The notes beneath the pieces were generated by a model, which was not told where the DNA came from, did no database searches, and saw only the letters and a list, made by a program, of their open reading frames with translations. From Thermoanaerobaculia bacterium (GTDB lineage Bacteria > Acidobacteriota > Thermoanaerobaculia > UBA5066 > Gp7-AA6), in the NCBI GenBank assembly GCA_035498835.1, contig DATJZU010000035.1:8625-72624 (forward strand): 64,000 nucleotides of DNA. The letters are read 5' to 3'. The position numbers were made by a program, and so were the translations under genes. Shown one piece after another: positions 24,263 to 63,314 of the stretch (its first letter is position 1; every line of letters starts with the position of its first letter).

Positions 24263-25393
24263 TCAGCCGGCGAGCGCCTGCTCGAGGTCTGCGACGAGAT
24301 CGTCCGGGTGCTCGAGGCCGATCGACAGGCGGATGAGCTCGGGCGGCGTCCGCGACGCGGGGCCTTCGCTCGTGGCGCGGTGCTCGATCAGGCTCTCGAA
24401 GCCGCCGAGCGACGTGGCTCGCGTGAAGAGCTTCGCGCGCGTGACGGCGCGGATCGCCGCCTCGCGGCCGGCGCGCACGCGGAAGGACAGCATGCCGCCG
24501 AAGGCGGACATCTGTCGCCGCGCGGCCTCGTGGCCGGGATGCGATTCGAGACCGGGATAGTGCACCGCGGAGACTCCGGGATGGCGCGCGAGCGCATTGG
24601 CCACCGCGACGCCGTTCGCGCTGTGCCGCTCCATACGGAGCGCGAGCGTGCGCAGTCCCCGAAGCGCGAGCCAGGAGGCGAAGGGCGAGGCGACGCCGCC
24701 GAGGATGTGGCGCGCGTGCTCGACCCTCTCGAAGAGCGCGTCGCGCCGCGCGAAGACGAGCGCGCCGCCCTGGACGTCGCTGTGGCCGCCGATGTACTTC
24801 GTCGTCGAGTGGAGGACGACGTCGGCGCCGAGCGCAAGCGGACGCTGGAGCGCCGGCGTCGCGAACGTGTTGTCCACGAGGACGAGCGCGCCGGCCTCGC
24901 GCGCGATGGCGATGGCGGCCGCGAGATCGGTGATCTTCATCAGCGGGTTCGAAGGCGTCTCGAGCCAGACGAGGCGCGTCTGCGGCCGGATCGCCGCGCG
25001 CAGCGCCGCCGGATCGTCCATCGCCGCGAGGTCCGTGCGGACGTTCCAGTGCCGCAGGAAATCGAACGCCGCGACGCGAAAGCCGTAGTAGACGTCGTCG
25101 GGGAGGAGGACGTGATCTCCCGACACGAGCGTCTGGAGGACGGCCGTCCCCGCCGCCATGCCCGAGGAAAACGCGAGCGCCGCCTCGCCGCCCTCGAGCG
25201 GCGCGAGCGCCTCCTCGAAGAGCGTCTGCGTCGGATTCCCCTCGCGGATGTACTGCGTCGGGCCGAGAAGCTCGTTCTTCTCGTCGCGCGCAAAGGTCGT
25301 CGAGAAGTGCAGCGGGGGAGCGATCGCGCCGGTTGCCGGATCCACGCGGTGTCCGGCGCGGACGAAGAGGGTCTCGCGCTTCATCGGCGGCAA
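24263..25393 (-). CDS. PLP-dependent Cys/Met-metabolism enzyme (cystathionine gamma-synthase / beta-lyase / O-succinylhomoserine sulfhydrylase family)
   Basis: MKRETLFVRAGH..., PLP-lysine motif STTKYIGGHSD, ~375 aa. Confidence 0.85.
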   Translation of the reverse strand: MPPMKRETLFVRAGHRVDPATGAIAPPLHFSTTFARDEKNELLGPTQYIREGNPTQTLFEEALAPLEGGEAALAFSSGMAAGTAVLQTLVSGDHVLLPDDVYYGFRVAAFDFLRHWNVRTDLAAMDDPAALRAAIRPQTRLVWLETPSNPLMKITDLAAAIAIAREAGALVLVDNTFATPALQRPLALGADVVLHSTTKYIGGHSDVQGGALVFARRDALFERVEHARHILGGVASPFASWLALRGLRTLALRMERHSANGVAVANALARHPGVSAVHYPGLESHPGHEAARRQMSAFGGMLSFRVRAGREAAIRAVTRAKLFTRATSLGGFESLIEHRATSEGPASRTPPELIRLSIGLEHPDDLVADLEQALAG

Positions 25394-25443
25394 GCCTATG
25401 GCGAGGAAGGGCTTGCGTCGAGCGCCGCATCGGGCCCTCGAAT

Positions 25444-25474
25444 TTGACTGACTGATCGGTCAATTAATGACTCA
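25444..25474. promoter_or_regulatory. AT-rich island with inverted repeat TTGAC-N10-GTCAA and TGACTGA direct repeats in a divergent promoter
   Basis: aatTTGACTGACTGATCGGTCAAttaATGACTCAtttcc. Only AT-rich stretch in this region, between the metB-family start (25393) and the molybdoenzyme operon start (25510). Confidence 0.4.
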
Positions 25475-25509
25475 TTTCCTCATCAAAACAAAGGGATTAC
25501 ACTGCTGCG

Positions 25510-26094
25510 ATGGTGAGACGTTCGAAGAAATCCGAAGCGGTCGCCGGCAAGCGGGTGATCCGCCTCGTCGTCAACGGGCAGCCGGTCGAGGCCGCCTTCG
25601 AGCCGCACAAGACGCTCCTCGAGGTGCTTCGCGAGGATCTGGCGCTGACCGGCACGAAGCACGGCTGCGAGCTCGGCGAGTGCGGAACGTGCGCGGTGCT
25701 CGTGGACGGCCGGCCGGTGCTCTCCTGCCTCGCGCTCGGCCTCGAATGCGAGGGACGCGCCGTCGAAACCGTCGAGGGGATGGCGGGCGCGTCGGGGCTC
25801 CATCCGCTCCAGAAGGCGTTCGCCGAGCTCGGCGCGGCGCAGTGCGGCTACTGCACGCCGGGGTTTCTGCTGACCGCCAGGGCCCTCCTCGAGGAGCGCC
25901 CCCGGGCGTCGCGCGACGAGATCCGCGAGGCCCTCGCCGGCAACCTCTGCCGCTGCACCGGCTACGTGAAGATCTTCGAGGCCGTCGAGCTCGCCGCGGC
26001 GTGGATGCGGGGTGAGGACGCGGCGCCGCGCAAGGAAGCGATTTACGGGTTTGATTTCGACGAGAGCGGGCTGCTTCCGGTCGTCAAGAGCTAA
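25510..26094 (+). CDS. molybdenum hydroxylase family [2Fe-2S] small subunit (CoxS/HcrC-like)
   Basis: Plant-type ferredoxin cysteines GCELGECGTCAV and the second cluster motif CGYCTPG...CRCTGY. Confidence 0.9.
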   Translation: MVRRSKKSEAVAGKRVIRLVVNGQPVEAAFEPHKTLLEVLREDLALTGTKHGCELGECGTCAVLVDGRPVLSCLALGLECEGRAVETVEGMAGASGLHPLQKAFAELGAAQCGYCTPGFLLTARALLEERPRASRDEIREALAGNLCRCTGYVKIFEAVELAAAWMRGEDAAPRKEAIYGFDFDESGLLPVVKS

Positions 26095-26271
26095 CGCGAT
26101 GAACGAAGCCCCGGGTTTGAAATCGTTCGTGCGCCGGTCGCGAAGCGACCGCGGGCTGTTGCCCACCCATCAATCCGCAGCCGTAGGGGCGGCCCTCGCG
26201 GCCGCCCGGGATGACAAGAAGCTTCCCGAAGTGAGCGGGGACGCGCCCCGCCCCGACGACCGGGGATCACG

Positions 26272-28710
26272 ATGACGGCGGGATCACGAACCCGCGTCGT
26301 CGGCCGCCCCTACGCCAAGGTGGACGCGGCCGCGAAGGTCACCGGACAGACACGCTTCGCCGACGACGTCGTCCTGCCGCGGATGCTTCACTGCAAGCTC
26401 CTGCGTTCGCGCCTGGCGCACGCGCGCATCCTGAGGATCGACGCATCCAGGGCGCGTGCCCTGCCCGGAGTCGTCGCGGTCGCGACCGGCGCGGAGCTCC
26501 CGATTCCGTTCGGCATCCTCCCGGTCTCGCAGGACGAGCACGCGCTCGCGATCGACCGCGTGCGGTTCGTGGGCGATCCCGTGGCGGCCGTCGCGGCGAC
26601 GGACGAGGACACCGCGGCCGAAGCGCTCGCGGCGATCGCGGTCGAGTACGAGCCGCTGCGGCCCATTGGCACGATGGAAGAGGGGCTCGCGCCGGCGGCG
26701 CCGCCGATTCACGACTACGGAGATTCCGGCAACATCCACAAGCTCGTCGCGATGGAGTTCGGCGACACGGCCGAGGGCTTCGCGCGCGCCGACCGCGTCT
26801 ACGAGGACCTCTACTTCTACGAGGGCTCGACGCACCTGCCGCTCGAGCAGCACGCCGCGGTCGCGGACTTCGGGCCCGACGGCAAGCTCACGGTCTGGTC
26901 TTCCACCCAGACGCCGCACTACGTCCATCGCGCGCTCTCGAAGGTGCTCGAGATGCCGCCCGCGAAGATCCGCGTCATCGCGACGCCCAACGGCGGGGGA
27001 TTCGGCGGCAAGTCGGACCCGTTCGCCCACGAGATCGTCGTCGCGCATCTCTCCCGCGCCACCGGCCGCCCCGTGAAGATCTGCCTGACCCGCGAGGAGG
27101 TCTTCTACTGCCATCGCGGGCGCCATCCGACGCTCATGAAGGTCCGGACCGGAGTGAAGCGCGACGGCGCCGTCACGGCGATGCACTTTCAGACGCTCCT
27201 CGACGGGGGCGGCTACGGTTCCTACGGCGTCGCCTCGACGTACTACACGGGCGCGCTGCAGACGGTGACCTACAAGATTCCCACCTACCGCTTCGAAGGC
27301 GCGCGCGTGTTCACGAACAAGCCGCCCTGCGGGCCCAAGCGTGGGCACGGCACACCCCAGCCGCGCTTTGCGCTCGAGGCGCAGCTCGACAAGATCGCCT
27401 GCGACCTCGGGCTCGATCCCGCGGAGCTGCGCAAGTCCCAGCTCCAACCGCCCGACTCGCTGACCGCGAACTTCCTGCGCGTCGGCTCGATGGGCCTCGG
27501 CGCGTGCATCGACAAAGTCGTCGCGGCGTCCGGCTGGAAGAAGCGCCGCGGCCGGCTTCCCGAGGGCCGGGGCCTCGGCCTCGCGTGTTCCTCGTACCTG
27601 TGCGGCGCGGGCCTGCCGATCTACTGGAACTCGATGCCGCAGTCGGGCGTGCAGCTGAAGCTCGACCGCGGCGGCGGCGTGACGGTCTTCTGCGGCTCGA
27701 CCGACATCGGACAGGGATCCGACACGATCCTCGCGGCCATCGTCGCGGAGGTGCTCGGGATCGACCCCTTCGACATCCGCGTCGTGACGGGCGACACCGA
27801 TCTGACACCGGTGGATCTCGGCTCCTACTCCTCGCGCGTGACGCTCATGACGGGCAACGCGGCGATCCAGGCTGCGGAGCGCGCGCGGGAGATGCTCGTG
27901 ACGGCCGCCGCCGCGAAGCTCGGAATTCCCGAGGAGCGCGTCGGGCTCGCCGCCGGCCGCGTCTTCGACGTCGCGGAGCCGGAAAAGGGCATGCCGTTTC
28001 CCGAGGCCGTCGTGCTCGCCGAGTCGCGCTTCGGGACCCTCGGAACGGTCGGCTCCTACTCGCCCCCGCCCTCGGCAGGCCGGTACCGCGGCGCGGGCGT
28101 CGGGCCGTCGCCCGCCTACTCCTACTCCGCCGCGGTCGTCGAGGTGGAAGTGGATCCCGAGACCGGCATTTACACCGTGCCGAAGGTCTGGATCGCGCAC
28201 GACGTCGGCAAGTGCATCAACCCCGTTCTCGTCATGGGCCAGGTCGAAGGCTCCGTGTACATGGGCCTCGGCGAAGCCATGATGGAGGAGATGGCCTACC
28301 GCACGGACGCGAATCGAAACGTCGTCCACAAGTTCCCGTCGCTCCTCGAGTACAAGAGCCCGACGACCAAGGAGATGCCCGAGGTCGAGACGTACCTCGT
28401 CGAGGATCCGGACCGCAACGGGCCGTTCGGAGCCAAAGAAGTCGGGCAAGGCCCGCTCCTCCCGATCCCGCCCGCGGTCGCCAACGCCGTCTACGACGCG
28501 GTCGGCGTGCGGATCGACGAGATTCCCGTCACGCCCGAGAAGATCCACCGGGCGTTGAAGGCCAAGGCTCAGGGCAAGGAGGCGCGGTACGGGCCGGCGA
28601 AGTTTCCCGCGGTCCCGTACCCCGATCCGATCCACGTGCCGACGCCCGCGGAGGGCGGCGACGGGCGCGCGGCGGACGCGGCCGTGACGGGCGCGGGCGG
28701 CGTGCGGTGA
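26272..28710 (+). CDS. molybdenum hydroxylase family molybdopterin-binding large subunit (CoxL/HcrA-like, aldehyde oxidase/xanthine dehydrogenase a/b hammerhead + MoCo domains)
   Basis: 812 aa. N-terminus VVGRPYAKVDAAAKVTGQTRFADDV. Typical large-subunit features throughout. Confidence 0.9.
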   Translation: MTAGSRTRVVGRPYAKVDAAAKVTGQTRFADDVVLPRMLHCKLLRSRLAHARILRIDASRARALPGVVAVATGAELPIPFGILPVSQDEHALAIDRVRFVGDPVAAVAATDEDTAAEALAAIAVEYEPLRPIGTMEEGLAPAAPPIHDYGDSGNIHKLVAMEFGDTAEGFARADRVYEDLYFYEGSTHLPLEQHAAVADFGPDGKLTVWSSTQTPHYVHRALSKVLEMPPAKIRVIATPNGGGFGGKSDPFAHEIVVAHLSRATGRPVKICLTREEVFYCHRGRHPTLMKVRTGVKRDGAVTAMHFQTLLDGGGYGSYGVASTYYTGALQTVTYKIPTYRFEGARVFTNKPPCGPKRGHGTPQPRFALEAQLDKIACDLGLDPAELRKSQLQPPDSLTANFLRVGSMGLGACIDKVVAASGWKKRRGRLPEGRGLGLACSSYLCGAGLPIYWNSMPQSGVQLKLDRGGGVTVFCGSTDIGQGSDTILAAIVAEVLGIDPFDIRVVTGDTDLTPVDLGSYSSRVTLMTGNAAIQAAERAREMLVTAAAAKLGIPEERVGLAAGRVFDVAEPEKGMPFPEAVVLAESRFGTLGTVGSYSPPPSAGRYRGAGVGPSPAYSYSAAVVEVEVDPETGIYTVPKVWIAHDVGKCINPVLVMGQVEGSVYMGLGEAMMEEMAYRTDANRNVVHKFPSLLEYKSPTTKEMPEVETYLVEDPDRNGPFGAKEVGQGPLLPIPPAVANAVYDAVGVRIDEIPVTPEKIHRALKAKAQGKEARYGPAKFPAVPYPDPIHVPTPAEGGDGRAADAAVTGAGGVR

Positions 28711-28728
28711 GGCGGTGAGGTTTCAGCC

Positions 28729-29703
28729 ATGATGCGCCTGCCGAAGTTCCGCTACTTCGCGCCCACGACGGTGCGCGAGGCCCTGCGTCTCCGCGCGGAA
28801 GCGGGCCCGGACACCGCCTTCGTCGCGGGAGGAACCGATCTCTATCCGAACATGAAGCGGCGCCAGCAGACGCCCGCGACGGTCATCGGCCTCGCGCGCA
28901 TCCCGCCGCTCGCGCGGCTGCGGTTCGGCCGCGACGCCGTCTCGATCGGCGCGGCGGTCCCGCTGTCGGCGATCGAGCGGCACCGCCGGATGCGCCGCGC
29001 CTTCCCCGGCCTCGTTGCGGCGATCCAGGAGATCTCGACGCCGCCGCTCCGCAACATGGGGACGCTCGGAGGCAACGTCCTCCTCGACACGCGCTGCAAC
29101 TATTACGACCAGAACGCCGAGTGGCGTCAGGCGATCGACTACTGCATGAAGAAGGACGGCGCGATCTGCTGGGTCGCGCCGGGCTCTCCGAAGTGCCTGG
29201 CCGTGCAGTCGGCCGACTCGGTGCCGGTGTTGATCGCGCTCGGCGCGCGGGCGCGGCTCGCGTCGCCGGAGGGGGAGCGGGACATCGCGCTCGAGGATCT
29301 GTACCGCAACGACGGAATCCACTACCTCACGAAGCGCCCGGAAGAGCTCCTGACCGAGATCCGCCTGCCGCCGCCCGACGGCTGGCGCGCGAGCTACAGG
29401 AAGCTGCGCCGCCGCGGCGCCTTCGACTTCCCGGTGCTCTCCGTCGGGGCGGCGGTCCGCCGCGAGGGGGGTGTCGTGGCCGAGGCGCGCCTCGTCCTCG
29501 GAGGCGTGGCGTCCGCGCCCCTGCGCCTGACGCGCGCGGAGGAGATCCTCCGGGGCCGCCGGCTGGATGCCGAATCGATTGCCGACGCGGCGGAGGCCTC
29601 TTCCGGCCCTGCCCGGCCGATGGACAACACGGATTTCTCGTTCCTGTGGCGAAAGGAAATGACCCGTCGGTTCGTCGCTTCCGCCCTGAAGGGCCTCGCT
29701 TAA
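28729..29703 (+). CDS. molybdenum hydroxylase family FAD-binding medium subunit with 4-Cys insertion (HcrB-like, putative extra [4Fe-4S])
   Basis: FAD_binding_5-like AFVAGGTDLY. Insertion TRCNYYDQNAEWRQAIDYCMKKDGAICWVAPGSPKCLAV gives Cx15Cx7Cx8C. Confidence 0.85.
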   Translation: MMRLPKFRYFAPTTVREALRLRAEAGPDTAFVAGGTDLYPNMKRRQQTPATVIGLARIPPLARLRFGRDAVSIGAAVPLSAIERHRRMRRAFPGLVAAIQEISTPPLRNMGTLGGNVLLDTRCNYYDQNAEWRQAIDYCMKKDGAICWVAPGSPKCLAVQSADSVPVLIALGARARLASPEGERDIALEDLYRNDGIHYLTKRPEELLTEIRLPPPDGWRASYRKLRRRGAFDFPVLSVGAAVRREGGVVAEARLVLGGVASAPLRLTRAEEILRGRRLDAESIADAAEASSGPARPMDNTDFSFLWRKEMTRRFVASALKGLA

Positions 29704-29884: not shown

Positions 29885-30184
29885 ATGAAGCTGTACGTTG
29901 GAAATCTCCCCTACAACACCACCGAGGAAGATCTGCGCAATTTGTTCTCGCAGTACGGGACCGTCGAGAACGTCGCCGTCGTGACGGACCGGGACACCGG
30001 CCGCTCCCGCGGCTTCGGGTTCGTCGAGTTCCCGGACGACAACGAGGCGCGCAACGCCATCTCCGGCCTTTCGGGCCAGGAGTACGGCGGCCGGGCGCTG
30101 ACCGTCAACGAGGCCCGTCCGAAGACGGGCGGAGGAGGCGGCGGCGGCGGGCGGGGCGGTTACGGCGGGCGTCCGCAGTACTGA
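29885..30184 (+). CDS. RRM-type RNA-binding protein with Gly-rich tail
   Basis: RNP-2 KLYVGNL and RNP-1 RGFGFVEF, C-terminal GGGGGGGGRGGYGG. Confidence 0.9.
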   Translation: MKLYVGNLPYNTTEEDLRNLFSQYGTVENVAVVTDRDTGRSRGFGFVEFPDDNEARNAISGLSGQEYGGRALTVNEARPKTGGGGGGGGRGGYGGRPQY

Positions 30185-30206
30185 CCGCAATCGGTTTCGC
30201 CAAGAC

Positions 30207-30234
30207 GGGGGCCTTCGGGCCCCCTTTTCTTTTT
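30207..30234 (+). terminator. rho-independent terminator
   Basis: GGGGGCC-ttcg-GGCCCCC followed by TTTTCTTTTT, immediately after the RRM gene stop. Confidence 0.8.
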
Positions 30235-30280
30235 GCGCGGGGCCCGCGCCTTCTGATTTGATGGCGGCAGGGGGACTCGA

Positions 30281-30889
30281 ATGGCCAAGAACAAGAAACC
30301 GAAGAAGGAAGAGAAGCCGGCGATGGAAGCAGCGCCCGCCGAGGGCGATTTCCTGAGCGACGTCCAGGAGCTGCGCCGCCGCGCGCGGAAACACATCGCC
30401 GACGGCGCCGTGACGCAGGGCTACCTCGCGGACCGCAAGAAGGTGATCGACGTGCTCAACCAGGCGCTCGCCACCGAGATCGTCTGCGTGCTCCGCTACA
30501 AGCGGCACTACTTCATGGCCAACGGAATCCACGCGAAGGCCGTTGCCCAGGAGTTTCTCCAGCACGCCAACGAGGAGCAGGGCCACGCCGATTCGATCGC
30601 CGAGCGGATCACGCAGCTCGACGGCGAGCCCGACTTCTCGCCGGAAGGCCTCGCCGCGCGCAGCCATTCCGAGTACAAGGAGGGCAAGACGCTCGTCGAC
30701 ATGATCCAGGAAGATCTCGTCGCCGAGCGCATCGCGATCGAATCGTACGGCGAGATCGTGCGCTTCCTGGGCGACCGCGACATCACCTCGCGGCGTCTCA
30801 TGGAGGAGATCCTCGCGGTCGAGGAGGAGCACGCCGACGACATGAAGAACCTCCTCGCCACCTTCGATCCGAGGAAGCCAGGCGTCTGA
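30281..30889 (+). CDS. ferritin-like diiron protein (bacterioferritin-like) with Lys-rich N-terminal extension
   Basis: AGGGGGA Shine-Dalgarno. Ferritin-like E...H / EE..H pairs: LATEIVCVLRYKRHYF...QHANEEQGHADSIAERI...EEEHADDMKNL. Confidence 0.7.
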   Translation: MAKNKKPKKEEKPAMEAAPAEGDFLSDVQELRRRARKHIADGAVTQGYLADRKKVIDVLNQALATEIVCVLRYKRHYFMANGIHAKAVAQEFLQHANEEQGHADSIAERITQLDGEPDFSPEGLAARSHSEYKEGKTLVDMIQEDLVAERIAIESYGEIVRFLGDRDITSRRLMEEILAVEEEHADDMKNLLATFDPRKPGV

Positions 30890-30902
30890 CCGGGCCTCGC
30901 GC

Positions 30903-31217
30903 ATGAGCGGGATCCGCCTCGAACGCTGGACGGCGGAGGACGGACCCCTGAACGAGCGGCGTCTGATGGCGCGCATGGAGCGCGAGGGCTACGAGGTGGC
31001 GGTCTACACCTACCGCGAGGGCACCGTGTTTCCCGAGCACGCGCACGCGCAGGACAAGTGCGACGCGGTTCTCGAAGGAGTGCTGCGGATCACCGTGGAC
31101 GGCGTCGCTTACGACCTCGAGGCCGGAGACCGGCTCTTCCTCCCGAAGGGCGCGCGGCACGCCGCGGAAGTCGTCGGCCGGCGGACGGTCGTCTCGCTCG
31201 ACGGGACGATCTGGTGA
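30903..31217 (+). CDS. cupin domain protein
   Basis: VFPEHAHAQDKCDAVLEGVL...GDRLFLPKGARHAAE is a two-motif cupin pattern. Confidence 0.75.
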   Translation: MSGIRLERWTAEDGPLNERRLMARMEREGYEVAVYTYREGTVFPEHAHAQDKCDAVLEGVLRITVDGVAYDLEAGDRLFLPKGARHAAEVVGRRTVVSLDGTIW

Positions 31218-31230
31218 GCGCCGGACGGCC

Positions 31231-32007
31231 GTGAGAGTCGCTCTCCTGCAGCTCGACACCGCCTGGGAGGACGCCGCCCGGAGCCACGCGCGCGCGGGAC
31301 CGCTCCTCGAGCGTGCCGCGCGGGAGGGCGCGCGGCTGGCCGTGCTGCCCGAGATGTTCTCGACCGGATTCTCGATGCATCCCGAGCGCGTGGCGCAGTC
31401 TCCCGGCGGCCCGTCCGAGTCCTTCCTCCGCGAGCGGTCGCGCGCCCTGGGTCTCTGGATCCTCGCGTCGATTCCGGAGAAGGAGGACGGCCGGTCGCGG
31501 AACGTCGCGCTCCTCGTCGCGCCGGCAGGCGAGGTGACGCGCTACGCGAAGATCCATCCCTTCTCGTTCGCGGGGGAGGACCGCGTCTATGCCGGCGGCG
31601 ACGGCGTCGTGACGGCAGCCGTCGAGGGCGTGCGCGTCACGCCCTTCGTCTGCTACGACCTTCGGTTTCCCGAGCCGTTCCGACTGGCAGCGGATGGCAC
31701 CGACCTCTACGCCGTCGTCGCGAACTGGCCCGAACGGCGGCAGGCGCATTGGAGGGCGCTCCTCCAGGCGCGCGCGATCGAGAACCTGGCCTTCGTCGTC
31801 GGGGTCAACCGGGCGGGCGAAGGCGACGGCGTGCGGTACGCCGGGGGATCGGCGGCCTTCTCGCCGTGGGGAGAGCTCCTCGCGGAGGCCGGAGCGGCGG
31901 AGGAGGTCCTCTTCTGCGACGTCGACCCGGCGGCGGTCGCGAAGGCGCGGGAGACTTTCCCGGCGCTGCGCGACCGGCGCCCCGACGCGTACCGCCGGCG
32001 GGGTTGA
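31231..32007 (+). CDS. carbon-nitrogen hydrolase (nitrilase superfamily)
   Basis: Catalytic triad contexts LAVLPEMF (E), RYAKIHPF (K), PFVCYDLRFPE (C). GTG start. Confidence 0.85.
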   Translation: MRVALLQLDTAWEDAARSHARAGPLLERAAREGARLAVLPEMFSTGFSMHPERVAQSPGGPSESFLRERSRALGLWILASIPEKEDGRSRNVALLVAPAGEVTRYAKIHPFSFAGEDRVYAGGDGVVTAAVEGVRVTPFVCYDLRFPEPFRLAADGTDLYAVVANWPERRQAHWRALLQARAIENLAFVVGVNRAGEGDGVRYAGGSAAFSPWGELLAEAGAAEEVLFCDVDPAAVAKARETFPALRDRRPDAYRRRG

Positions 32008-33112: not shown

Positions 33113-35581
33113 CTAGTCTCTCGACAGCACGTCGTGCAGAGCGTTCACGACGGCGCGATCGGGAGGCTTCGGCAGCTCCGCCTCGAGATGGACCGGCGCC
33201 GTCGTGCTGCCGACGAGCGTGACGAAGCCGATGCGCCGCGCCTCGCCCTTCGAGACGGCGTAGACCGGAAGCCGTGTGCGGAAGTCCGGCGAGACGCCGC
33301 TTTGCGAAACCGTTCCGGTGATCGCGTACCGATTGCCTCCCGCCGGTGCGACCACGAGGTTGGTCTCGAACCGCGGAATCTCGGTGCCCGTCACCCACTG
33401 GCGGAAGAACCAGTCCATCTTGCCGTCTCCCGCGAGGTCGAGCTCCGGAGCCATGTGACGCTCGACCGCATCCTGAAAATCCCGCGTCGTCGGGCTCTGG
33501 TCCTCCTGCGAGGAGAGAAAGTCCTGCATCATCGCGATGAACCGCGCATCGGGACGGTCGGACTCCGGATCGCGCAGGAGCGCGCGTAGCATGTGGAGGA
33601 TGTAGGCGCCCTTGGAATAGATCATCGCCTGCGCCGCGAAACGGTTGCGCCAGGTCGAGAGTCGATAGCCGTCGGTGATCGGCCCCGCTTCGTCGTTCGC
33701 CACGGACGCGTAGCGGGGTTTCTGGGTGATGCGGCGCCGGGCCTTCTCCCAGAATCCGTTCATCCGGCCGACGCCTTCGGTGAACTGGAGGACGAGCGCC
33801 GCGGTGAACTCGGCGAAGCCCTCGGAGAGCCACTGGTCCCGGTAGCTCGCCCAGCCCACGCGGTGGCCCCACCACTGATGGGCGAACTCGTGCGGGCCGA
33901 CGAGGTCCACGAAATCCGACGCGTTCTGAAGGCCGAGCTCGTGGCGGATCGTGGAATCGAAGGCCGCGATGTACGGGAGGTAGACGAGGGTGGGCCAGGA
34001 CTGTCCGAAGAAGGCCTGCGTCTGCTGCGTGATGGAGACGACCCGGTCCGGGAGCGGGCCGTAGTACATCGTGGCGACGCGCGCGGTGTTGATTCCATCC
34101 GCGATCGCGGAGCTCGTCAGGGTCTCGGGGTCGGCGGAGACGTGGCGCAGTCCGGCGTCCGTTCGGTTCTCGAGGGCGAAGTTGATCTGACGCAGGAAGT
34201 CAGGCTCGCCCGGGTTGGTGTACACCTCGACCGTGAGGCCGCTGACCGAGTCGGTCTGGCCGCGCCGGCGAAACTTCCCGTAGTTGAAACCGGCTACGCG
34301 GAACGGGCGATCCGATTTCCAGATCGAGATTCGCTGGTCGCCTTCGACGCGGTCCTCGCGGAGCTCGCCGACCGACACGATCTGAAGCGCCTTCGGACAG
34401 TGGTACGTCAGGTCGTAGCGCGCGAGCTCCGTGAACGTCCCGAGGTTCGGGTACCAGCTTTCCCGCGCGCCGACGACGAAGTTTCCGTCTCCCGCGTCCT
34501 GCAACACGTCCTTGCCTTCGTATTCGAGCCGAACGCGATAGAGCTGCCCGGCGGTCAGGGGCCTCGGCATCACGACGGCGAGATCGGCGTCCTCGTCCTC
34601 GTCCTCCTGGACGAAAGCGACGGGAAGCAGCGCCTCGCTCTCGCCGTTGCCGAGCGCCGCCTGTTTGACGCGGAGCTTCGAGAGCAGGGCCACGGGTAGG
34701 ACCCGCAGTCCGTCCACCGTCGGCTTGAAGAAGATGTCCGTGCGCCCTTGAAGCCGCGTATTGCGCGCGATCGTCGTGTCGACGGCGTAGCGCTCGGCGC
34801 GGGCGCGGCGGCGCGCCCGGGGGAACCGGCCCGCGGCGATCTCGTCGCGCGTGTGGGAGGCGTACCAGTAGCCGCCACGCTCGTCGTGGAGGACGTAGAG
34901 GACCACGGACTCGCCTCCGAGTTCGTCCGAGAACCAGTCCGCCAGCCCCGCGGGGTCCGCGATCGCCAGCGCCGGCGGAAGCTTCTTGCCGGTAAATCCC
35001 GCGAGAAACAGGCCCCTGGACGCCGGCCGGGCCTCGAGCACATCCTCCAGGAGGCGGATCTGGAGGTTGTTTTTCAGGTCCTTCCGTTGGCGTTTGAAGA
35101 ACTTCTCGAAAACCTCGCGGGCGGAGGCGAGCGCCGGAGCGGCGGGTGGGGCCGGCGTGCCGTTGGCGCGGATCTCGTCGGCCGTCGCGTCGGTGAAGAG
35201 AAACACGGCCGCATCGAACGAGTCGGTCAGGATCTCGAGCCTGGGATCGCCCGTGACGAAGGCGAGGTGACGCCGCTCGGACGGGGTGGCCGGAGAGAGC
35301 TCGAAGCGTCCATCGCCGACGAAGACGGCGCCGACCGTCCGGTCTGAGACCGGCGTCAGGAACTGGACGACGCCGGACGAGAGGCGGAAGCGGAAGGCGT
35401 CGCGCTCGATCGTCAGCCCGTTCACGGTGACCGCTGGCCCGTCGGGACGCGCCGCGCGAAGCGCCGCGTACACCGGATCGGCCGGCGGCGCGGCCGCGGT
35501 GGCCCCGAGCGCCGCCGCCGCGGCGAGGAGGGAAGCGGCGAGGAAGGCGGCAGGCCGCCTTGCGAGGTGGGTCACGGGCAC
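33113..35581 (-). CDS. secreted zinc metallopeptidase, M1-like gluzincin (HEFAHQWWG...X18...E), paralog A
   Basis: Signal peptide. HEFAHQWWGHRVGWASYRDQWLSEGFAEF (HEXXH + 18 + E). No GAMEN motif seen. Confidence 0.8.
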   Translation of the reverse strand: MPVTHLARRPAAFLAASLLAAAAALGATAAAPPADPVYAALRAARPDGPAVTVNGLTIERDAFRFRLSSGVVQFLTPVSDRTVGAVFVGDGRFELSPATPSERRHLAFVTGDPRLEILTDSFDAAVFLFTDATADEIRANGTPAPPAAPALASAREVFEKFFKRQRKDLKNNLQIRLLEDVLEARPASRGLFLAGFTGKKLPPALAIADPAGLADWFSDELGGESVVLYVLHDERGGYWYASHTRDEIAAGRFPRARRRARAERYAVDTTIARNTRLQGRTDIFFKPTVDGLRVLPVALLSKLRVKQAALGNGESEALLPVAFVQEDEDEDADLAVVMPRPLTAGQLYRVRLEYEGKDVLQDAGDGNFVVGARESWYPNLGTFTELARYDLTYHCPKALQIVSVGELREDRVEGDQRISIWKSDRPFRVAGFNYGKFRRRGQTDSVSGLTVEVYTNPGEPDFLRQINFALENRTDAGLRHVSADPETLTSSAIADGINTARVATMYYGPLPDRVVSITQQTQAFFGQSWPTLVYLPYIAAFDSTIRHELGLQNASDFVDLVGPHEFAHQWWGHRVGWASYRDQWLSEGFAEFTAALVLQFTEGVGRMNGFWEKARRRITQKPRYASVANDEAGPITDGYRLSTWRNRFAAQAMIYSKGAYILHMLRALLRDPESDRPDARFIAMMQDFLSSQEDQSPTTRDFQDAVERHMAPELDLAGDGKMDWFFRQWVTGTEIPRFETNLVVAPAGGNRYAITGTVSQSGVSPDFRTRLPVYAVSKGEARRIGFVTLVGSTTAPVHLEAELPKPPDRAVVNALHDVLSRD

Positions 35582-35585
35582 GACT

Positions 35586-38102
35586 CTAATCCCGGGAGAG
35601 CACTTCGTGGCGCGGGTTGGCGACGACGCGGCGGGGCCGTTCGGCGGTTTCGAGCGGCAGGTCGAGCGACGCCTCGACGTTGCCGACGAGCGTCACGGAT
35701 GTGACGTAGGCGAGCTCGCCTCGCGAGAGCTCGGCGAAGAGCGGGACGACGGAACGAAAGTCCGGAGGAACGCCATCCTGCGTGACGGAGCCGGCCGCGC
35801 GCCACTTCCCTCCCGGTGCGTCGATCACGCGGAGCTTTCCGCGGAGGCGCGGGATGTCGGTGCCGTAGACCCACTGGCGAAAGAACCAGTCGAGCCTCCC
35901 GTCTTCGGCGCCCCGGAGGCCCGTGACGTGCCGCTCGACGGCCGCCTGGAAATCGCGCGTGGACGGGTTGGCGCCCGCCCAGGACTGCGCGAAGTCCTTC
36001 ATCGCAGCGAAGAAGCTCCGGTCCGGGTCGGGAGCACCCCGGTCGCGCATCCACTCCCGCAGCATGCGGAGCACGTACGCTCCTTTCGTGTAGACGACGA
36101 CGTCGTAGGCCCACGGGTTGCGCGCCGTGAAAAGGCGCTGTCCCATGATGATCGGTCCCGCGGCGGCGTTCGAGATCCCGCTGCCCGGAGGCTTCTCGAG
36201 GATCCGCCGGCGGGCGCGCTCCCAGTAGTCCACGCCCCTCTTCGCTCCGCCGGTCGTCTCGATGACCATGGCGGCGGTGAACTCCGCGAAGCCCTCCGAG
36301 AGCCATCGATCGCGGTATCCCTTCCAGCCGACGAGCTGTCCCCACCACTGGTGCGCGAACTCGTGCGGGATGACGCCCTCGAGAAAGTTCGCCTCGCCCT
36401 CGAGCCCGATCTGCCGCCGCGTGGCGTCGTCGAGGGCGGCGGCGTACGGAACGTAGAGGAGGCCCGGCCAGGATTGGCCGGAGAACGCCTGCGTTTGCTG
36501 CGTGATCGCGATCCGCGAATCCGGAAGGGGGCCGAACGCCGAGGATCCGATCCGCGCGGTCGCGAGGCCGTCGGCGATCGCCGCCGCGGCGAGGACGTCG
36601 GGGTCGAGGTGGAGCGGCCGGATTCCGGAGCCCGCGATCGGGGAGTCCCCGGAGACGCCGATCCGCTCGACGGGAACGTTCGCGAAGTTGGCCAGATCGG
36701 GATGGATCACGCGGGCCGCGGCGGCGATCTGGACGAGCTTCAGATTCAGCCGATGGATGTAGTTCGGCGTGCCGCGGTTCGTGTAGACGCGGACTCCCAC
36801 GCCGACCGACGGGTCCGATCGGTCGATCTCGCGGAACTTTCCGTAGTTGAAGCCGGCGACGCGGATCGGCCGGTCGGCCCTCCAGACCGAGACGGCCGTC
36901 TCGCCCTCGAGCCGCTCCGAGACCTTCGTTCCGACCGAGACGACCTCGTACTCCTTCGGATGGTGGTACGTCATCTCGTAGGCCGAGAGGTCGTGGAACC
37001 ATCCGAGGTTCGGGTACCAGTTGTCGCGGGCGCCGACGAGAAAGTTGCCGTCGCCGGCGTCGCGCAGGGTCCCGCGGCCGTCGGTCGAGATCCGGAGACG
37101 AAACGTTGCGCCGCGCGCCGGCGCGGGGTCGAGCAGGACGGCCGCGTCGAGCTCGTCGGACTCCGCCTCCTGGATGAAATCGACGGGAGCCCATTCGGAG
37201 CTTTCGGACCACCGGACCTCGGCACTCCGGACCCGCTGGCGCTCCGACAGATTGAGCCGCAGCACGCGGAGGCCCTCCGACGTCGGCGTGACCTGAATCG
37301 TCGTCGCGACCGCCATGTGTGCGTCCGGGAAGATCGTCGTGTCGATGCCGTACCAGAGCGCGCGGGCGAACGGCGGCGGAGCGGCTTCCGCGACGGTCCC
37401 CGGCCCGCGGCCCCGCGGCGCGGCGCAGTACCAGAGCCCGCCGGCGTCGCCGGTCGCGAAGAACGCCGTGGTCTCTCCGTCGACGCGCCCGAGAATGCTT
37501 TCGAGGCCGGCCGGATCGAAGGCCGCGAGCCCGGAGGGCGTCTTGTCGCCCGGAATCCAAGCGGCGAAGAATCCCGGACGACCCCGCGACAGTCCCTCGA
37601 GAAGCTCGAGCGGAAGGTTGATGCGCAGCTCCCGCGCCTCCCAGTCGCGGAACGCCCGATAGGTATCTTCCGCGCGCCGCGAGGGCGCCGTTCGCCGGAC
37701 CGAAGCGCGCGCGATCTCCGCTGCCGTGGCATCGGTGAAGAGAAGAACCGATCGTTCGATGGGAATGCGCAGAGTCGCGAGGTTGCCCTTGCCGCTCACG
37801 AGCGCCAGGTGCTCGCGCTCCATCTCGTTCGCCGGATCGATCTCGAACGTTCCCGACCCGTTGAAGACCGCGCCGACGATTCGCCCGTCGACCGGGGCGA
37901 GGAACTGCAGCGTTCCCGACGCGAAGCGGAATCGGAGCGCGTCCCGCTCGAGCGTCACTCCGGAGGCGTCGAGTGCCTCGCCCGCGGGCCGCTCGGAACG
38001 GAGGGCGTCGTACAGGCTCCGGAGCTCCCCACCCGGCGCCGCCGCCCGAACGAGCGATCCGGCGAGGAGCGCGGCGGCGAGCGGGAGGGGCGGCTTTCGC
38101 AT
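35586..38102 (-). CDS. secreted zinc metallopeptidase, M1-like gluzincin, paralog B
   Basis: Same architecture and motif (HEFAHQWWGQLVGWKGYRDRWLSEGFAEF). The C-terminal HEVLSRD is shared with paralog A. Lies 4 nt upstream of A. Confidence 0.8.
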   Translation of the reverse strand: MRKPPLPLAAALLAGSLVRAAAPGGELRSLYDALRSERPAGEALDASGVTLERDALRFRFASGTLQFLAPVDGRIVGAVFNGSGTFEIDPANEMEREHLALVSGKGNLATLRIPIERSVLLFTDATAAEIARASVRRTAPSRRAEDTYRAFRDWEARELRINLPLELLEGLSRGRPGFFAAWIPGDKTPSGLAAFDPAGLESILGRVDGETTAFFATGDAGGLWYCAAPRGRGPGTVAEAAPPPFARALWYGIDTTIFPDAHMAVATTIQVTPTSEGLRVLRLNLSERQRVRSAEVRWSESSEWAPVDFIQEAESDELDAAVLLDPAPARGATFRLRISTDGRGTLRDAGDGNFLVGARDNWYPNLGWFHDLSAYEMTYHHPKEYEVVSVGTKVSERLEGETAVSVWRADRPIRVAGFNYGKFREIDRSDPSVGVGVRVYTNRGTPNYIHRLNLKLVQIAAAARVIHPDLANFANVPVERIGVSGDSPIAGSGIRPLHLDPDVLAAAAIADGLATARIGSSAFGPLPDSRIAITQQTQAFSGQSWPGLLYVPYAAALDDATRRQIGLEGEANFLEGVIPHEFAHQWWGQLVGWKGYRDRWLSEGFAEFTAAMVIETTGGAKRGVDYWERARRRILEKPPGSGISNAAAGPIIMGQRLFTARNPWAYDVVVYTKGAYVLRMLREWMRDRGAPDPDRSFFAAMKDFAQSWAGANPSTRDFQAAVERHVTGLRGAEDGRLDWFFRQWVYGTDIPRLRGKLRVIDAPGGKWRAAGSVTQDGVPPDFRSVVPLFAELSRGELAYVTSVTLVGNVEASLDLPLETAERPRRVVANPRHEVLSRD

Positions 38103-42020: not shown

Positions 42021-43205
42021 ATGCGCCCGGTCTACGTCCTCTCCGCCGCCCGCACACCGATCGGCAAATTCGGCGGCGCTTTCGCGGCCCTCTCGCCGGC
42101 CGATCTCGGAGAGGCCGCCGCCCGAGCCGCCATCGAGCGCTCGGGTCTTCCCGCGACGGCGATCGACGAGACGATCTTCGGGCACGCGCGGCAGGCCGGG
42201 GGAGGGCCGAACACGGCGCGGCAGGTCTCGCACCGCGCCGGCGTTCCGGACGCCGTACCGGCCTACACCGTCAACAAGGCTTGCGCGTCTTCGCTCAAGG
42301 CGCTCACGCTCGGTGCGCTCTCGATCGCCGCCGGCGAGAACGATCTCGTGCTCGTGGGCGGGACCGAGTGCATGTCGGCCACCCCGTACCTGCTCCCGCG
42401 GGCGCGCTTCGGCTACCGCATGGGGAACGCGGAGGTCGTGGACGCGATGTACCGCGACGGGTTCCTGTGTCCGCTCTGCGGGAAGCTCATGGGCGAGACG
42501 GCCGAGACTCTCTCGCGCGAATACGGGATCCTGCGCGCCGAGCAGGACGCCTTCGCGCTCGAGTCGCAGCGGCGCGCCGGCGCGGCCGCCGCGGCGGGAC
42601 ATTTCGACCGCGAGATCGCGCCGGTCGAGATCGCCGGGAAGAAGGGCTCCGTCCGCGTGGAGAAGGACGAGCATCCGCGCCCCGACACGACGCTCGAGGC
42701 GCTCGCGAAGCTGCCGCCCGTGTTCGACCCGAAGGAGGGCACCGTGCACGCGGGCAATTCGTCGGGCGTGACGGACGGGGCCGCAGCGCTCGTGCTGGGG
42801 ACGGAGGAGGAGGCCGCGAAGTCCGGCGTCGCGCCCCTCGCGCGCATCGTCGCCTGGGCGTCGGCGGGCGTCGATCCGGCGCGCATGGGCATCGGGCCGG
42901 TGCCGGCGGTCCGCGCGGTCCTCGAGAAGGCGGGGCGAAGGCTCTCCGACCTGGATCTCGTCGAGTTGAACGAGGCGTTCGCCGCGCAGGTGATCGCGTG
43001 CGCGCGGGAGCTGCCGCTCGACCTCGGGCGCGTCAACGTCAACGGCGGTGCCATCGCCCTCGGGCATCCGATCGGAGCGACGGGCGCGCGGATCGCGACG
43101 ACGCTGCTCCACGAGATGGCCCGGCGCGGCTCGCGGCTGGGCCTCGCGACCCTCTGCGTCTCCGGCGGAATGGGCATGGCCGTGCTCTTCGAGAGGGCGG
43201 AGTGA
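42021..43205 (+). CDS. acetyl-CoA C-acyltransferase (thiolase)
   Basis: [11 protein letters not shown] active-site Cys, C-terminal [16 protein letters not shown]...CVSGGMG. Confidence 0.9.
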
Positions 43206-62429: not shown

Positions 62430-63314
62430 TTAGCCCTTCTCCCCCTTCCGCGGGCGCAGCGCCTCGAACGCCGCCGCGAGGCGCTCGCGCGGCACGCGGC
62501 GATAGTCGGAGAACTCGCCGGCGCCGGCCAGCCATTCGCCGCCGTCCATGGTCACGCAGTCGCCGGTCTGGAACGGGCAGAGGTCCGACATCAGGAACGT
62601 CGCGAGCGCCGCGATCTCCTCCGGCGTCCCGAACCGCCCGAGGGGGATGCGCCCGAGCGCGTTCTTCTTCGCTTCCTCGCTGGCCATGAGGCGCGAGAAG
62701 GCGCCCTCGGTCGGGATCGGGCCCGGCGCGATTCCGTTCAGCCGGATGCCGAAGGGCGCCCATTCGACCGCGAGGGAGCGTGTCATGGCGAGCACTCCCG
62801 CCTTGGCGCAGGCCGAGGGCAGCGCGAACGCGGTCCCGGTCTCCACGTAGGTCGCGAGGATCGAGACGATCGCCCCGGGGGCGCGCCGCTCCATCAGGTG
62901 GCGGCCGACGGCGAGCGTGCAGTTCACCGAGCCGTAGAGGACCGTGCGCACGACGGCGTCGAAGCCATTCGGAGACAGCTTCTCGGAGAACGCGAGGAAG
63001 TTTCCCGCGGCGTTGTTGACGAGGCCGTCCACCTTGCCGAAGCGCGAGACGGCGAAGCGCACGAGCGCCGCGACCTCGTCCGGCTCGCGGACGTCGGCCG
63101 TCAGGTGCGCCGCCCGACCGCCTTCGCGCGCCGCGGCGGCGATCTCGCGCTCGGCCGCCACGAGGCGCTCGCGTCTCCGTCCGGCGATCGTGACGTGCGC
63201 GCCGTGCGCCGCGAAGGCCTTCGCCATCGCGAGGCCGAGCCCCGAGCCGCCTCCGGTGACCAGGATCGAGCGGCCGGACAGGATCCGAGGATCGAAGAGC
63301 GCGCGCGAGCTCAC
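62430..63314 (-). CDS. SDR family oxidoreductase (2,4-dienoyl-CoA reductase-like)
   Basis: VTGGGSGLG and NNAAGNF motifs. GTG start overlapping the upstream S9 peptidase stop (GTGA). Confidence 0.8.
   Translation of the reverse strand: MSSRALFDPRILSGRSILVTGGGSGLGLAMAKAFAAHGAHVTIAGRRRERLVAAEREIAAAAREGGRAAHLTADVREPDEVAALVRFAVSRFGKVDGLVNNAAGNFLAFSEKLSPNGFDAVVRTVLYGSVNCTLAVGRHLMERRAPGAIVSILATYVETGTAFALPSACAKAGVLAMTRSLAVEWAPFGIRLNGIAPGPIPTEGAFSRLMASEEAKKNALGRIPLGRFGTPEEIAALATFLMSDLCPFQTGDCVTMDGGEWLAGAGEFSDYRRVPRERLAAAFEALRPRKGEKG

Follow-up and report, generated by a model that had tools for sequence, protein, structure and literature searches.

A fixed glutamine in place of the catalytic glutamate in a 4-hydroxybenzoyl-CoA reductase-like molybdenum enzyme of Acidobacteriota and Gemmatimonadota

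The 64-kb stretch of contig DATJZU010000035.1 analysed here, called the window, comes from a Thermoanaerobaculia bacterium and carries a three-gene operon for a molybdenum enzyme that belongs to the xanthine-oxidase family. The enzyme falls on the 4-hydroxybenzoyl-coenzyme A (CoA) reductase (HCR) branch of this family, but its large subunit has a glutamine, Gln726, where the family has its catalytic glutamate. Judged by their sequences, the window enzyme and its orthologues form a distinct and strongly conserved subfamily of Acidobacteriota (Thermoanaerobaculia and Blastocatellia) and Gemmatimonadota. The HCR type of enzyme is already known and what is new is a clade in which the glutamine is fixed. 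Our preferred reading, which we hold at a probability of about one half, is an HCR-type reductase with a non-canonical mechanism.

The large subunit carries the motif GAKEVGQG, in which Gln726 was found to align exactly with the Glu of GAK-G/E-x-G-E in five solved structures (HcrA, nicotinate dehydrogenase, a CoxL-type enzyme, 6-hydroxypseudooxynicotine dehydrogenase and quinoline oxidoreductase). The corresponding residue is E726 in HcrA, which we take to be equivalent to E1261 of bovine xanthine oxidase. Of 120 close homologues, 119 have glutamine at this position, as do all of the 80 related loci, which were taken from species-representative genomes. The substitution is therefore not a sequencing error. 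In the wider family, the catalytic column is Glu in 117 of 133 full-length representatives of clusters at 50% identity. When 11 Gln-type members were compared with 16 HCR-like Glu enzymes, only two columns were fixed and different, with Ser322 against Thr and Gln726 against Glu. The Gln726 codon, CAA, is a rare A-ending codon in a gene with a third-position GC of 0.92 and is a single substitution away from GAA (Glu). Our literature searches found no paper on this clade or on a fixed Glu-to-Gln change in the family, and nothing specific on family members that lack the Glu.

In hydroxylation, according to a previous study, the catalytic Glu serves to activate the Mo-OH group so that it can make its nucleophilic attack (PMC10420851). 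Ucd, a urolithin dehydroxylase that works reductively, also retains this residue, as E741 (PMC11760930). Since the general base needed by the hydroxylating members is Gln in the window enzyme, a conventional hydroxylase is unlikely, and for the same reason the acid-base chemistry must differ from that of canonical HCR. The initial annotation of this DNA, made from the letters alone, had likened the enzyme to HCR and had proposed a comparison of the large-subunit active-site residues with those of HcrA. In this comparison the motifs are HCR-like, but Gln726 stands where HcrA has Glu726.

About 12% of the 133 representatives have a residue other than Glu in the catalytic column, namely Asp, Met, Ile, Leu, Asn, Arg, Ser or Gln (P0175, P0182, P0190, P0209, P0210, P0218, P0224, P0227, P0235, P0257, P0269 and P0155), and some of these may be alignment or assembly artefacts. 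P0155 is a second, unrelated Gln-type protein whose gene adjoins an MtrA-like gene and a molybdopterin oxidoreductase gene.

The closest solved relative of the window enzyme is HcrCAB of Thauera aromatica (PDB 1RM6/1SB3), the 4-hydroxybenzoyl-CoA reductase for which the number EC 1.1.7.1 is quoted. The large subunit scored 645 bits against HcrA (1RM6_A; 44.5% identity) and 297 bits against the next solved structure, while HcrB (1RM6_B) is the best match of the FAD subunit among all PDB chains (183 bits, 39% identity). Both systems consist of three subunits encoded in the order small, large, medium and have the same Cx15Cx7Cx8C loop residue for residue, and both large subunits contain the RGHG and GSYSSR motifs and the GAKE-type Glu723. 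The motifs GGGFGGKS, HRGRHP, KRGHG and GSYSSR were found to be common to HCR-like enzymes. Apart from Gln726 the scaffold is, by alignment, very HCR-like. T. aromatica HcrA, P0138, which represents the HcrA cluster at 50% identity, and P0122, a relative encoded beside benzoyl-CoA reductase (BCR)-like genes, agree at 277 positions. The clade consensus keeps 230 of these, more than any of the other HCR-like representatives that were compared. Unlike HcrCAB, the window system has Gln726, a Pro-rich C-terminal tail of about 45 residues, a place in a separate clade and scores below three equivalog cutoffs. The tail lies beyond the end of HcrA (near residue 769) and is missing in HcrA and in the Gln-type protein P0125, while it is kept in the clade consensus and by the core clade members of either phylum, with tblastn matches reaching to about residue 799 in other phyla.

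These likenesses raise the explanation that the window encodes a genuine 4-hydroxybenzoyl-CoA reductase, which would supply benzoyl-CoA to an anaerobic or an aerobic hybrid benzoyl-CoA pathway with its genes in another part of the genome and would tolerate the Glu-to-Gln change as reduction needs no base. Among the NCBIfam models, the equivalogs for HcrA, HcrB and HcrC match the three subunits best, the JGI sources name many close homologues 4-hydroxybenzoyl-CoA reductase, and the 230 kept positions amount to 83% of those common to three putative true HCRs. However, all three subunits scored below the curated cutoffs, with 849 bits for the large subunit (TIGR03194, cutoff 994.55), 261 bits for the FAD subunit (TIGR03195, cutoff 404.55) and 178 bits for the small subunit (TIGR03193, cutoff 257.8). 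This shortfall is weak counter-evidence. In a calibration of TIGR03194 the Thauera-type P0138 alone passed (1302 bits), whereas P0122 failed as well (933 bits), so the NCBIfam cutoff is not a reliable test of function and we downgraded it from a decisive test of membership. A further point against a genuine HCR is that the 16 HCR-like sequences that were compared and are not of the Gln type all have Glu, where the window enzyme has Gln726.

The phylogeny also bears on this explanation. In a tree built by neighbour-joining only (200 bootstraps), an HCR-like supergroup with 99% bootstrap support holds both the window clade and the clade of T. aromatica HcrA. T. aromatica HcrA and P0138 form their own clade (100%), and the window protein, P0121 and the orthologues from Blastocatellia and Gemmatimonadota make up a separate clade (100%). 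The tree neighbours of the window clade are the Glu-type proteins P0122, P0148, P0124 and others. At 51% identity to the window protein, the Gln-type P0125 is placed beside the Glu-type P0148 (92%), so that Gln may have been gained, or have changed back, on more than one occasion. Because of Gln726 and the separate, fully supported clade, the enzyme is not a plain HCR orthologue. The likeness to HCR drawn in the initial annotation stands for the branch, the gene order and the Cys loop. On the choice between HCR and CO dehydrogenase, the score against HcrA and the 99% supergroup support the HCR branch. Neither of the outcomes that the annotation had named as refuting, loop cysteines out of register with HcrB or a grouping with CO dehydrogenases, was observed. 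CoxL models gave 288-366 bits against the large subunit, far below their cutoffs, which places it outside the aerobic CO dehydrogenases. The active-site loop of CoxL is VAYRCSFR, and the KRGHG of the window protein presumably occupies the corresponding position.

The Glu-type HCR-like enzymes resemble the window protein closely. P0122, P0124 and P0129 are 47-57% identical to it over nearly the full length and P0148 is 42% identical. These enzymes share GGGFGGKS-D/E, HRGRH, CGPKRGHG and PVDLGSYSSR with the window protein and have the four-Cys loop in their FAD subunits, but they keep the catalytic Glu whereas the window protein does not. Fusions of the small and large subunits occur among them, for example in P0122 and P0127, while the two are separate genes in the window. 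Their gene contexts were found to vary and are mostly uninformative. The nearest Glu-type relative is P0122 (57% identity, fused small and large subunits; GCA_018335975.1, locus L004 1-13833), whose gene comes immediately downstream of genes resembling those of class-I benzoyl-CoA reductase (two HGD-D and two BcrAD_BadFG), with an acyl-CoA dehydrogenase and a 2-oxoacid:ferredoxin oxidoreductase also beside it. P0122 is likely to be a genuine HCR although it falls below the TIGR03194 cutoff. The Gln-type P0125 (L002 9505-22301) heads a long co-directional cluster with aconitase-like large and small subunits, a PaaK-like CoA ligase, an HMGL-like enzyme and indolepyruvate/2-oxoacid:ferredoxin oxidoreductases, and a branched-chain amino-acid ABC transporter and enoyl-CoA hydratases are found upstream of this cluster. 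The P0125 cluster may hint at the kind of substrate, for example aryl or 2-oxo acids.

The loop peptide TRCNYYDQNAEWRQAIDYCMKKDGAICWVAPGSPKC was confirmed to be present in the FAD subunit of the window, and the Cx15Cx7Cx8C motif reported in the initial annotation spans residues 123-156 (loop letters CNYYDQNAEWRQAIDYCMKKDGAICWVAPGSPKC). In a phmmer alignment the four loop cysteines share their columns with C122, C138, C146 and C155 of HcrB (1RM6_B numbering) and the loop is free of gaps, which bears out the earlier statement that HcrB has exactly this spacing. These HcrB cysteines are presumably the cluster ligands, and the window loop is predicted to hold a [4Fe-4S] cluster. The exact spacing was observed in 64 of the 64 FAD subunits recovered from the 80 related loci, six other HCR-like loci also encode FAD subunits that have it, and given this recurrence the spacing is not due to chance. 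As every FAD subunit recovered from HCR-like loci has the four-Cys loop, it is a trait of the whole HCR-like group.

The initial annotation had taken the loop to single out HCR. This does not hold, because PaoB (5G5G) and the aldehyde oxidase of Methylobacillus (5Y6Q) have a four-Cys [4Fe-4S] loop in the FAD subunit as well (bioRxiv 10.64898/2026.07.15.738685). Their loop spacing is different (x9-11, x8, x18). The loop alone cannot tell the catalytic direction since the oxidative PaoABC has it and the reductive Ucd is without it. The window enzyme could accordingly be imagined as an oxidative hydroxylase or an aldehyde oxidoreductase like PaoABC, where the [4Fe-4S] cluster would be the exit to ferredoxin or another acceptor and not to NAD+. 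PaoABC of E. coli and 5Y6Q are xanthine-oxidase-family heterotrimers like the window enzyme, the medium subunits with the loop act oxidatively, E. coli-type XdhA models are the second-best NCBIfam matches, and the cultured members of the carrier lineages are mostly aerobic. However, the general base for hydroxylation is missing in the window enzyme whereas PaoABC keeps its Glu, and the loop spacing is of the HCR type and not of the Pao type. The large subunit is also distant from PaoC, with 200 bits against the structure (645 for HcrA) and 281 bits against the PaoC NCBIfam model (cutoff 1180). PaoABC has the gene order small, medium, large and is exported by the twin-arginine translocation (Tat) system, while the N-terminus of the window small subunit, MVRRSKKSEAVAGKR, showed neither a twin-arginine nor a hydrophobic signal when the translation was read directly. 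The Cys spacing, the gene order, the PaoC score and the lack of a Tat signal all set the window enzyme apart from the PaoABC type, and we regard an oxidative role as distinctly improbable.

A reductive relative without the loop is also known. Ucd/Ucdh of Enterocloster performs a reductive phenol dehydroxylation with a xanthine-oxidase-family enzyme (PMC11760930), and HCR is the closest characterised relative of Ucdh, at about 33% identity (bioRxiv 10.1101/2025.01.17.632430). Ucd has no [4Fe-4S] loop, is NADH-linked and keeps the catalytic Glu (PMC11760930), whereas the window enzyme has both the loop and Gln726.

The distribution of the clade was scanned in one genome per species using the clade-specific peptides GAGLPIYW and MGLGEA[MLT]M. 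At least 599 stretches were matched and at least 582 were confirmed as relatives; the counts over loci and the neighbourhoods given here refer to the best 80 of these relatives. Among these 80, Thermoanaerobaculia and unclassified Acidobacteriota show 81-87% identity, Blastocatellia and Pyrinomonadaceae 69-75% and Gemmatimonadota 72-74%. More than 120 clusters at the 90% identity level are 84-100% identical to the window large subunit, and an identical protein has been deposited from a metagenome-assembled genome of Thermoanaerobaculia (Acidobacteriota). The NCBI name for some of the close homologues is only 'molybdopterin cofactor-binding domain-containing protein'. The related loci keep the order small, large, medium, in some cases with unrelated genes inserted between the large and the medium gene.

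Clustering of the open reading frames (ORFs) from the 80 loci showed that only the three subunit genes and shadow ORFs are common to the three lineages. A 4-hydroxybenzoate-CoA ligase, a benzoyl-CoA reductase or lower pathway and a ferredoxin with 2-oxoglutarate:ferredoxin oxidoreductase were not conserved in these loci, and no CoA ligase, BCR/Bam, Dch/Had/Oah or ferredoxin gene was observed among the ORFs scanned in the window. The remark in the initial annotation that benzoyl-CoA pathway genes are not visible therefore agrees with the scan. Unlike HCR systems, the window enzyme is thus without aromatic-pathway neighbours in the scanned ORFs and in the 80 loci. Together with the presence of the clade in at least 582 species genomes, largely of soil Pyrinomonadaceae and Gemmatimonadota, at 69-87% identity, which is unlike a peripheral catabolic gene, and with the separate clade, this makes a genuine 4-hydroxybenzoyl-CoA reductase an unlikely identity for the window enzyme. 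The identity of about 70-87% across two phyla and the lack of conserved partner genes point to a conserved role.

In Blastocatellia the operon has folK, panB and panC before it and, after it, genes for a MocA-like cytidylyltransferase, a redoxin and in some cases an enoyl-CoA hydratase. Reading the function from the gene neighbourhood was tried and rejected, as only the subunits are shared and the lineage-specific neighbours (folK, panB and panC) are housekeeping genes. The MocA-type cytidylyltransferase gene, which adjoins the operon in many Blastocatellia loci, is relevant to another explanation, in which the Mo site would be catalytically disabled and the complex would serve only as an electron-transfer or regulatory module. 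The loss of the catalytic Glu is the observation that would fit it. We consider this explanation very improbable, given the adjoining cytidylyltransferase gene, the 69-87% identity kept across two phyla and the state of GGGFGGK, RGHG, GSYSSR and GAKE, which we take to be the molybdenum cofactor-binding and active-site motifs. These motifs were found to be invariant in an alignment of seven clade members and essentially invariant in the 120 close homologues.

The preferred reading is that of an HCR-type reductase with altered acid-base chemistry. The domains and Cys motifs, the clade placement, the kept HCR positions, the fixed Gln726 and the gene surroundings of P0122 and P0125 speak for it. 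The product of the window operon would then be a cytoplasmic molybdenum-FAD-iron-sulfur enzyme with alpha, beta and gamma subunits on the HCR branch of the xanthine-oxidase family, with predicted sites for the [4Fe-4S] cluster on the beta-subunit loop, for FAD, for two [2Fe-2S] clusters and for molybdopterin. Electrons would enter at the [4Fe-4S] cluster from a low-potential donor such as ferredoxin, as in HCR, and would reach Mo by way of FAD and the two [2Fe-2S] clusters, and the substrate would be reduced at Mo by dehydroxylation or deoxygenation. Reductive dehydroxylation, which the initial annotation had proposed, is plausible from the sequence. Because the pocket is otherwise very HCR-like, our best guess for the substrate would be an aromatic compound, possibly CoA-linked, and not necessarily 4-hydroxybenzoyl-CoA itself.

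Several points weigh against this reading. Neither the catalytic direction nor the substrate is readable from sequence, and the [4Fe-4S] loop is also present in the oxidative PaoABC. Canonical HCR keeps the Glu, so its loss is no known signature of reductive chemistry. Furthermore, Glu723, three residues before Gln726, is conserved and common to the aligned HCR-like sequences, and it might take over the acid-base duty at least partly. No ferredoxin, CoA ligase or ring-reduction gene is conserved beside the operon in any of the three lineages represented by the 80 loci. Cultured Pyrinomonadaceae and Gemmatimonadota are mostly aerobes, and an oxygen-sensitive, ferredoxin-driven reductase would be unexpected in such lineages.

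We also put forward, tentatively, a wider proposal. The clade may be a previously unrecognised and very widespread subfamily (at least 582 species genomes), in which the Glu has been fixed as Gln on an HCR-like, loop-bearing scaffold and whose chemistry would be new to the family. An example would be the obligately reductive deoxygenation of a substrate other than 4-hydroxybenzoyl-CoA, in a conserved and possibly housekeeping role in soil bacteria. The usual HCR annotation probably misstates the function of the enzyme. Soil metagenome studies take K04108 labels as potential for anaerobic aromatic degradation, and if the Gln-type clade does have another function, this inference is inflated for Acidobacteriota and Gemmatimonadota. 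In addition, a recent preprint has called the basis of the oxidative-to-reductive switch in the xanthine-oxidase family unclear (bioRxiv 10.1101/2025.01.17.632430). A Glu-to-Gln change that occurs naturally and is conserved on the HCR scaffold would give a direct handle on this switch and, if our reading is true, a natural experiment on what turns enzymes of this family from oxidation to reduction.

The operon consists of three co-directional ORFs with a third-position GC of 0.90-0.92 (Table 1). Their Pfam matches lie far above the gathering scores and give the domain make-up of the three-subunit bacterial xanthine-oxidase/molybdenum-hydroxylase family. The ORF coordinates and these domains bear out the gene order small, large, medium noted in the initial annotation. 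Both canonical [2Fe-2S] motifs were found in the small subunit.

Table 1. Positions of the operon genes and associated features in the window
Feature	Positions	Strand	Remarks
Imperfect palindrome TGACTGATCGGTCA (TGACCGGTCGGTCA in relatives)	25449-25462	no strand	operator-like, 5' of the operon
AT-rich conserved leader, TTCCTCATCAAAACAAAGGGATTACA	25476-25509	+	likely ribosome-binding region; from the upstream-region alignment
Small (gamma) [2Fe-2S] subunit gene	25510-26094	+	194 amino acids; Pfam Fer2 and Fer2_2
Two [2Fe-2S] sites of the small subunit	Cx4Cx2Cx11C, 25666-25728; Cx2C...CxC, 25843-25956	+	
Spacer between the small- and large-subunit genes	26095-26271	+	177 nucleotides, non-coding
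Large (alpha) molybdopterin subunit gene	26272-28710	+	812 amino acids; Pfam Ald_Xan_dh_C, MoCoBD_1 and MoCoBD_2
Gln726 codon CAA	28447-28449	+	position of HcrA E726, the family catalytic Glu
Pro-rich C-terminal tail RYGPAKFPAVPYPDPIHVPTP	28570-28707	+	about 45 amino acids beyond the HcrA end
Medium (beta) FAD subunit gene	28729-29703	+	324 amino acids; Pfam FAD_binding_5 and CO_deh_flav_C
Loop C123-x15-C139-x7-C147-x8-C156, predicted [4Fe-4S] site	29095-29196	+	

The palindrome and the AT-rich leader are found at the same position before the small-subunit gene in 12 of about 15 loci of the Thermoanaerobaculia lineage, where the DNA farther upstream is unrelated, and they are absent from the Blastocatellia and Gemmatimonadota loci. 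The palindrome looks like an operator and, conserved together with the leader, it suggests a dedicated regulator specific to this lineage. As a regulon motif of the whole window it was not supported, since its frequency within the window is not above chance. No riboswitch or other known RNA was matched in Rfam over the leader and the spacer (25300-26350). The small and large genes abut in the syntenic relative L001, in contrast to the 177-nucleotide gap in the window.

Within the operon, the gap between the large and FAD genes seems to act as a hot spot for insertions. In many Pyrinomonadaceae loci and in one Gemmatimonadales locus it holds 1-3.6 kb of inserted unrelated genes (L026, L027, L032, L054, L060 and others), which encode an aspartyl protease, a polysaccharide deacetylase, VWA/YfbK, ParA-like, DUF6883 and DUF4062 proteins and others.

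The claim that the operon is clustered with CoA-ester metabolism genes was rejected. The thiolase (42021-43205) lies 12 kb off the operon, past opposite-strand peptidase, decarboxylase and superoxide dismutase genes and a two-component system, and the short-chain dehydrogenase/reductase (62430-63314) lies 33 kb off. No crotonase was found among the window ORFs scanned, with several ORFs, mainly at 1-17 kb, left unscanned.

Upstream of the operon the window encodes a Cys/Met pyridoxal phosphate-dependent enzyme, an M23 peptidase and a cupredoxin. Directly 3' of the FAD gene and co-directional with it is a run of small genes (29885-32007), which code for an RNA recognition motif protein whose tail is Gly-rich, a ferritin/rubrerythrin-like protein, a cupin and a CN-hydrolase. 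This run is syntenic in L001 and is not conserved in other lineages. Farther downstream, on the opposite strand, are two M1 peptidases, a pyridoxal phosphate-dependent decarboxylase and a Cu/Zn superoxide dismutase. The synteny of the window is repeated in L001, which is 87% identical. The two M1 peptidase-type genes (33113-38102, minus strand) are tandem paralogues of about 830 amino acids each with a C-terminal M1-peptidase domain, and the pair is kept in L001.

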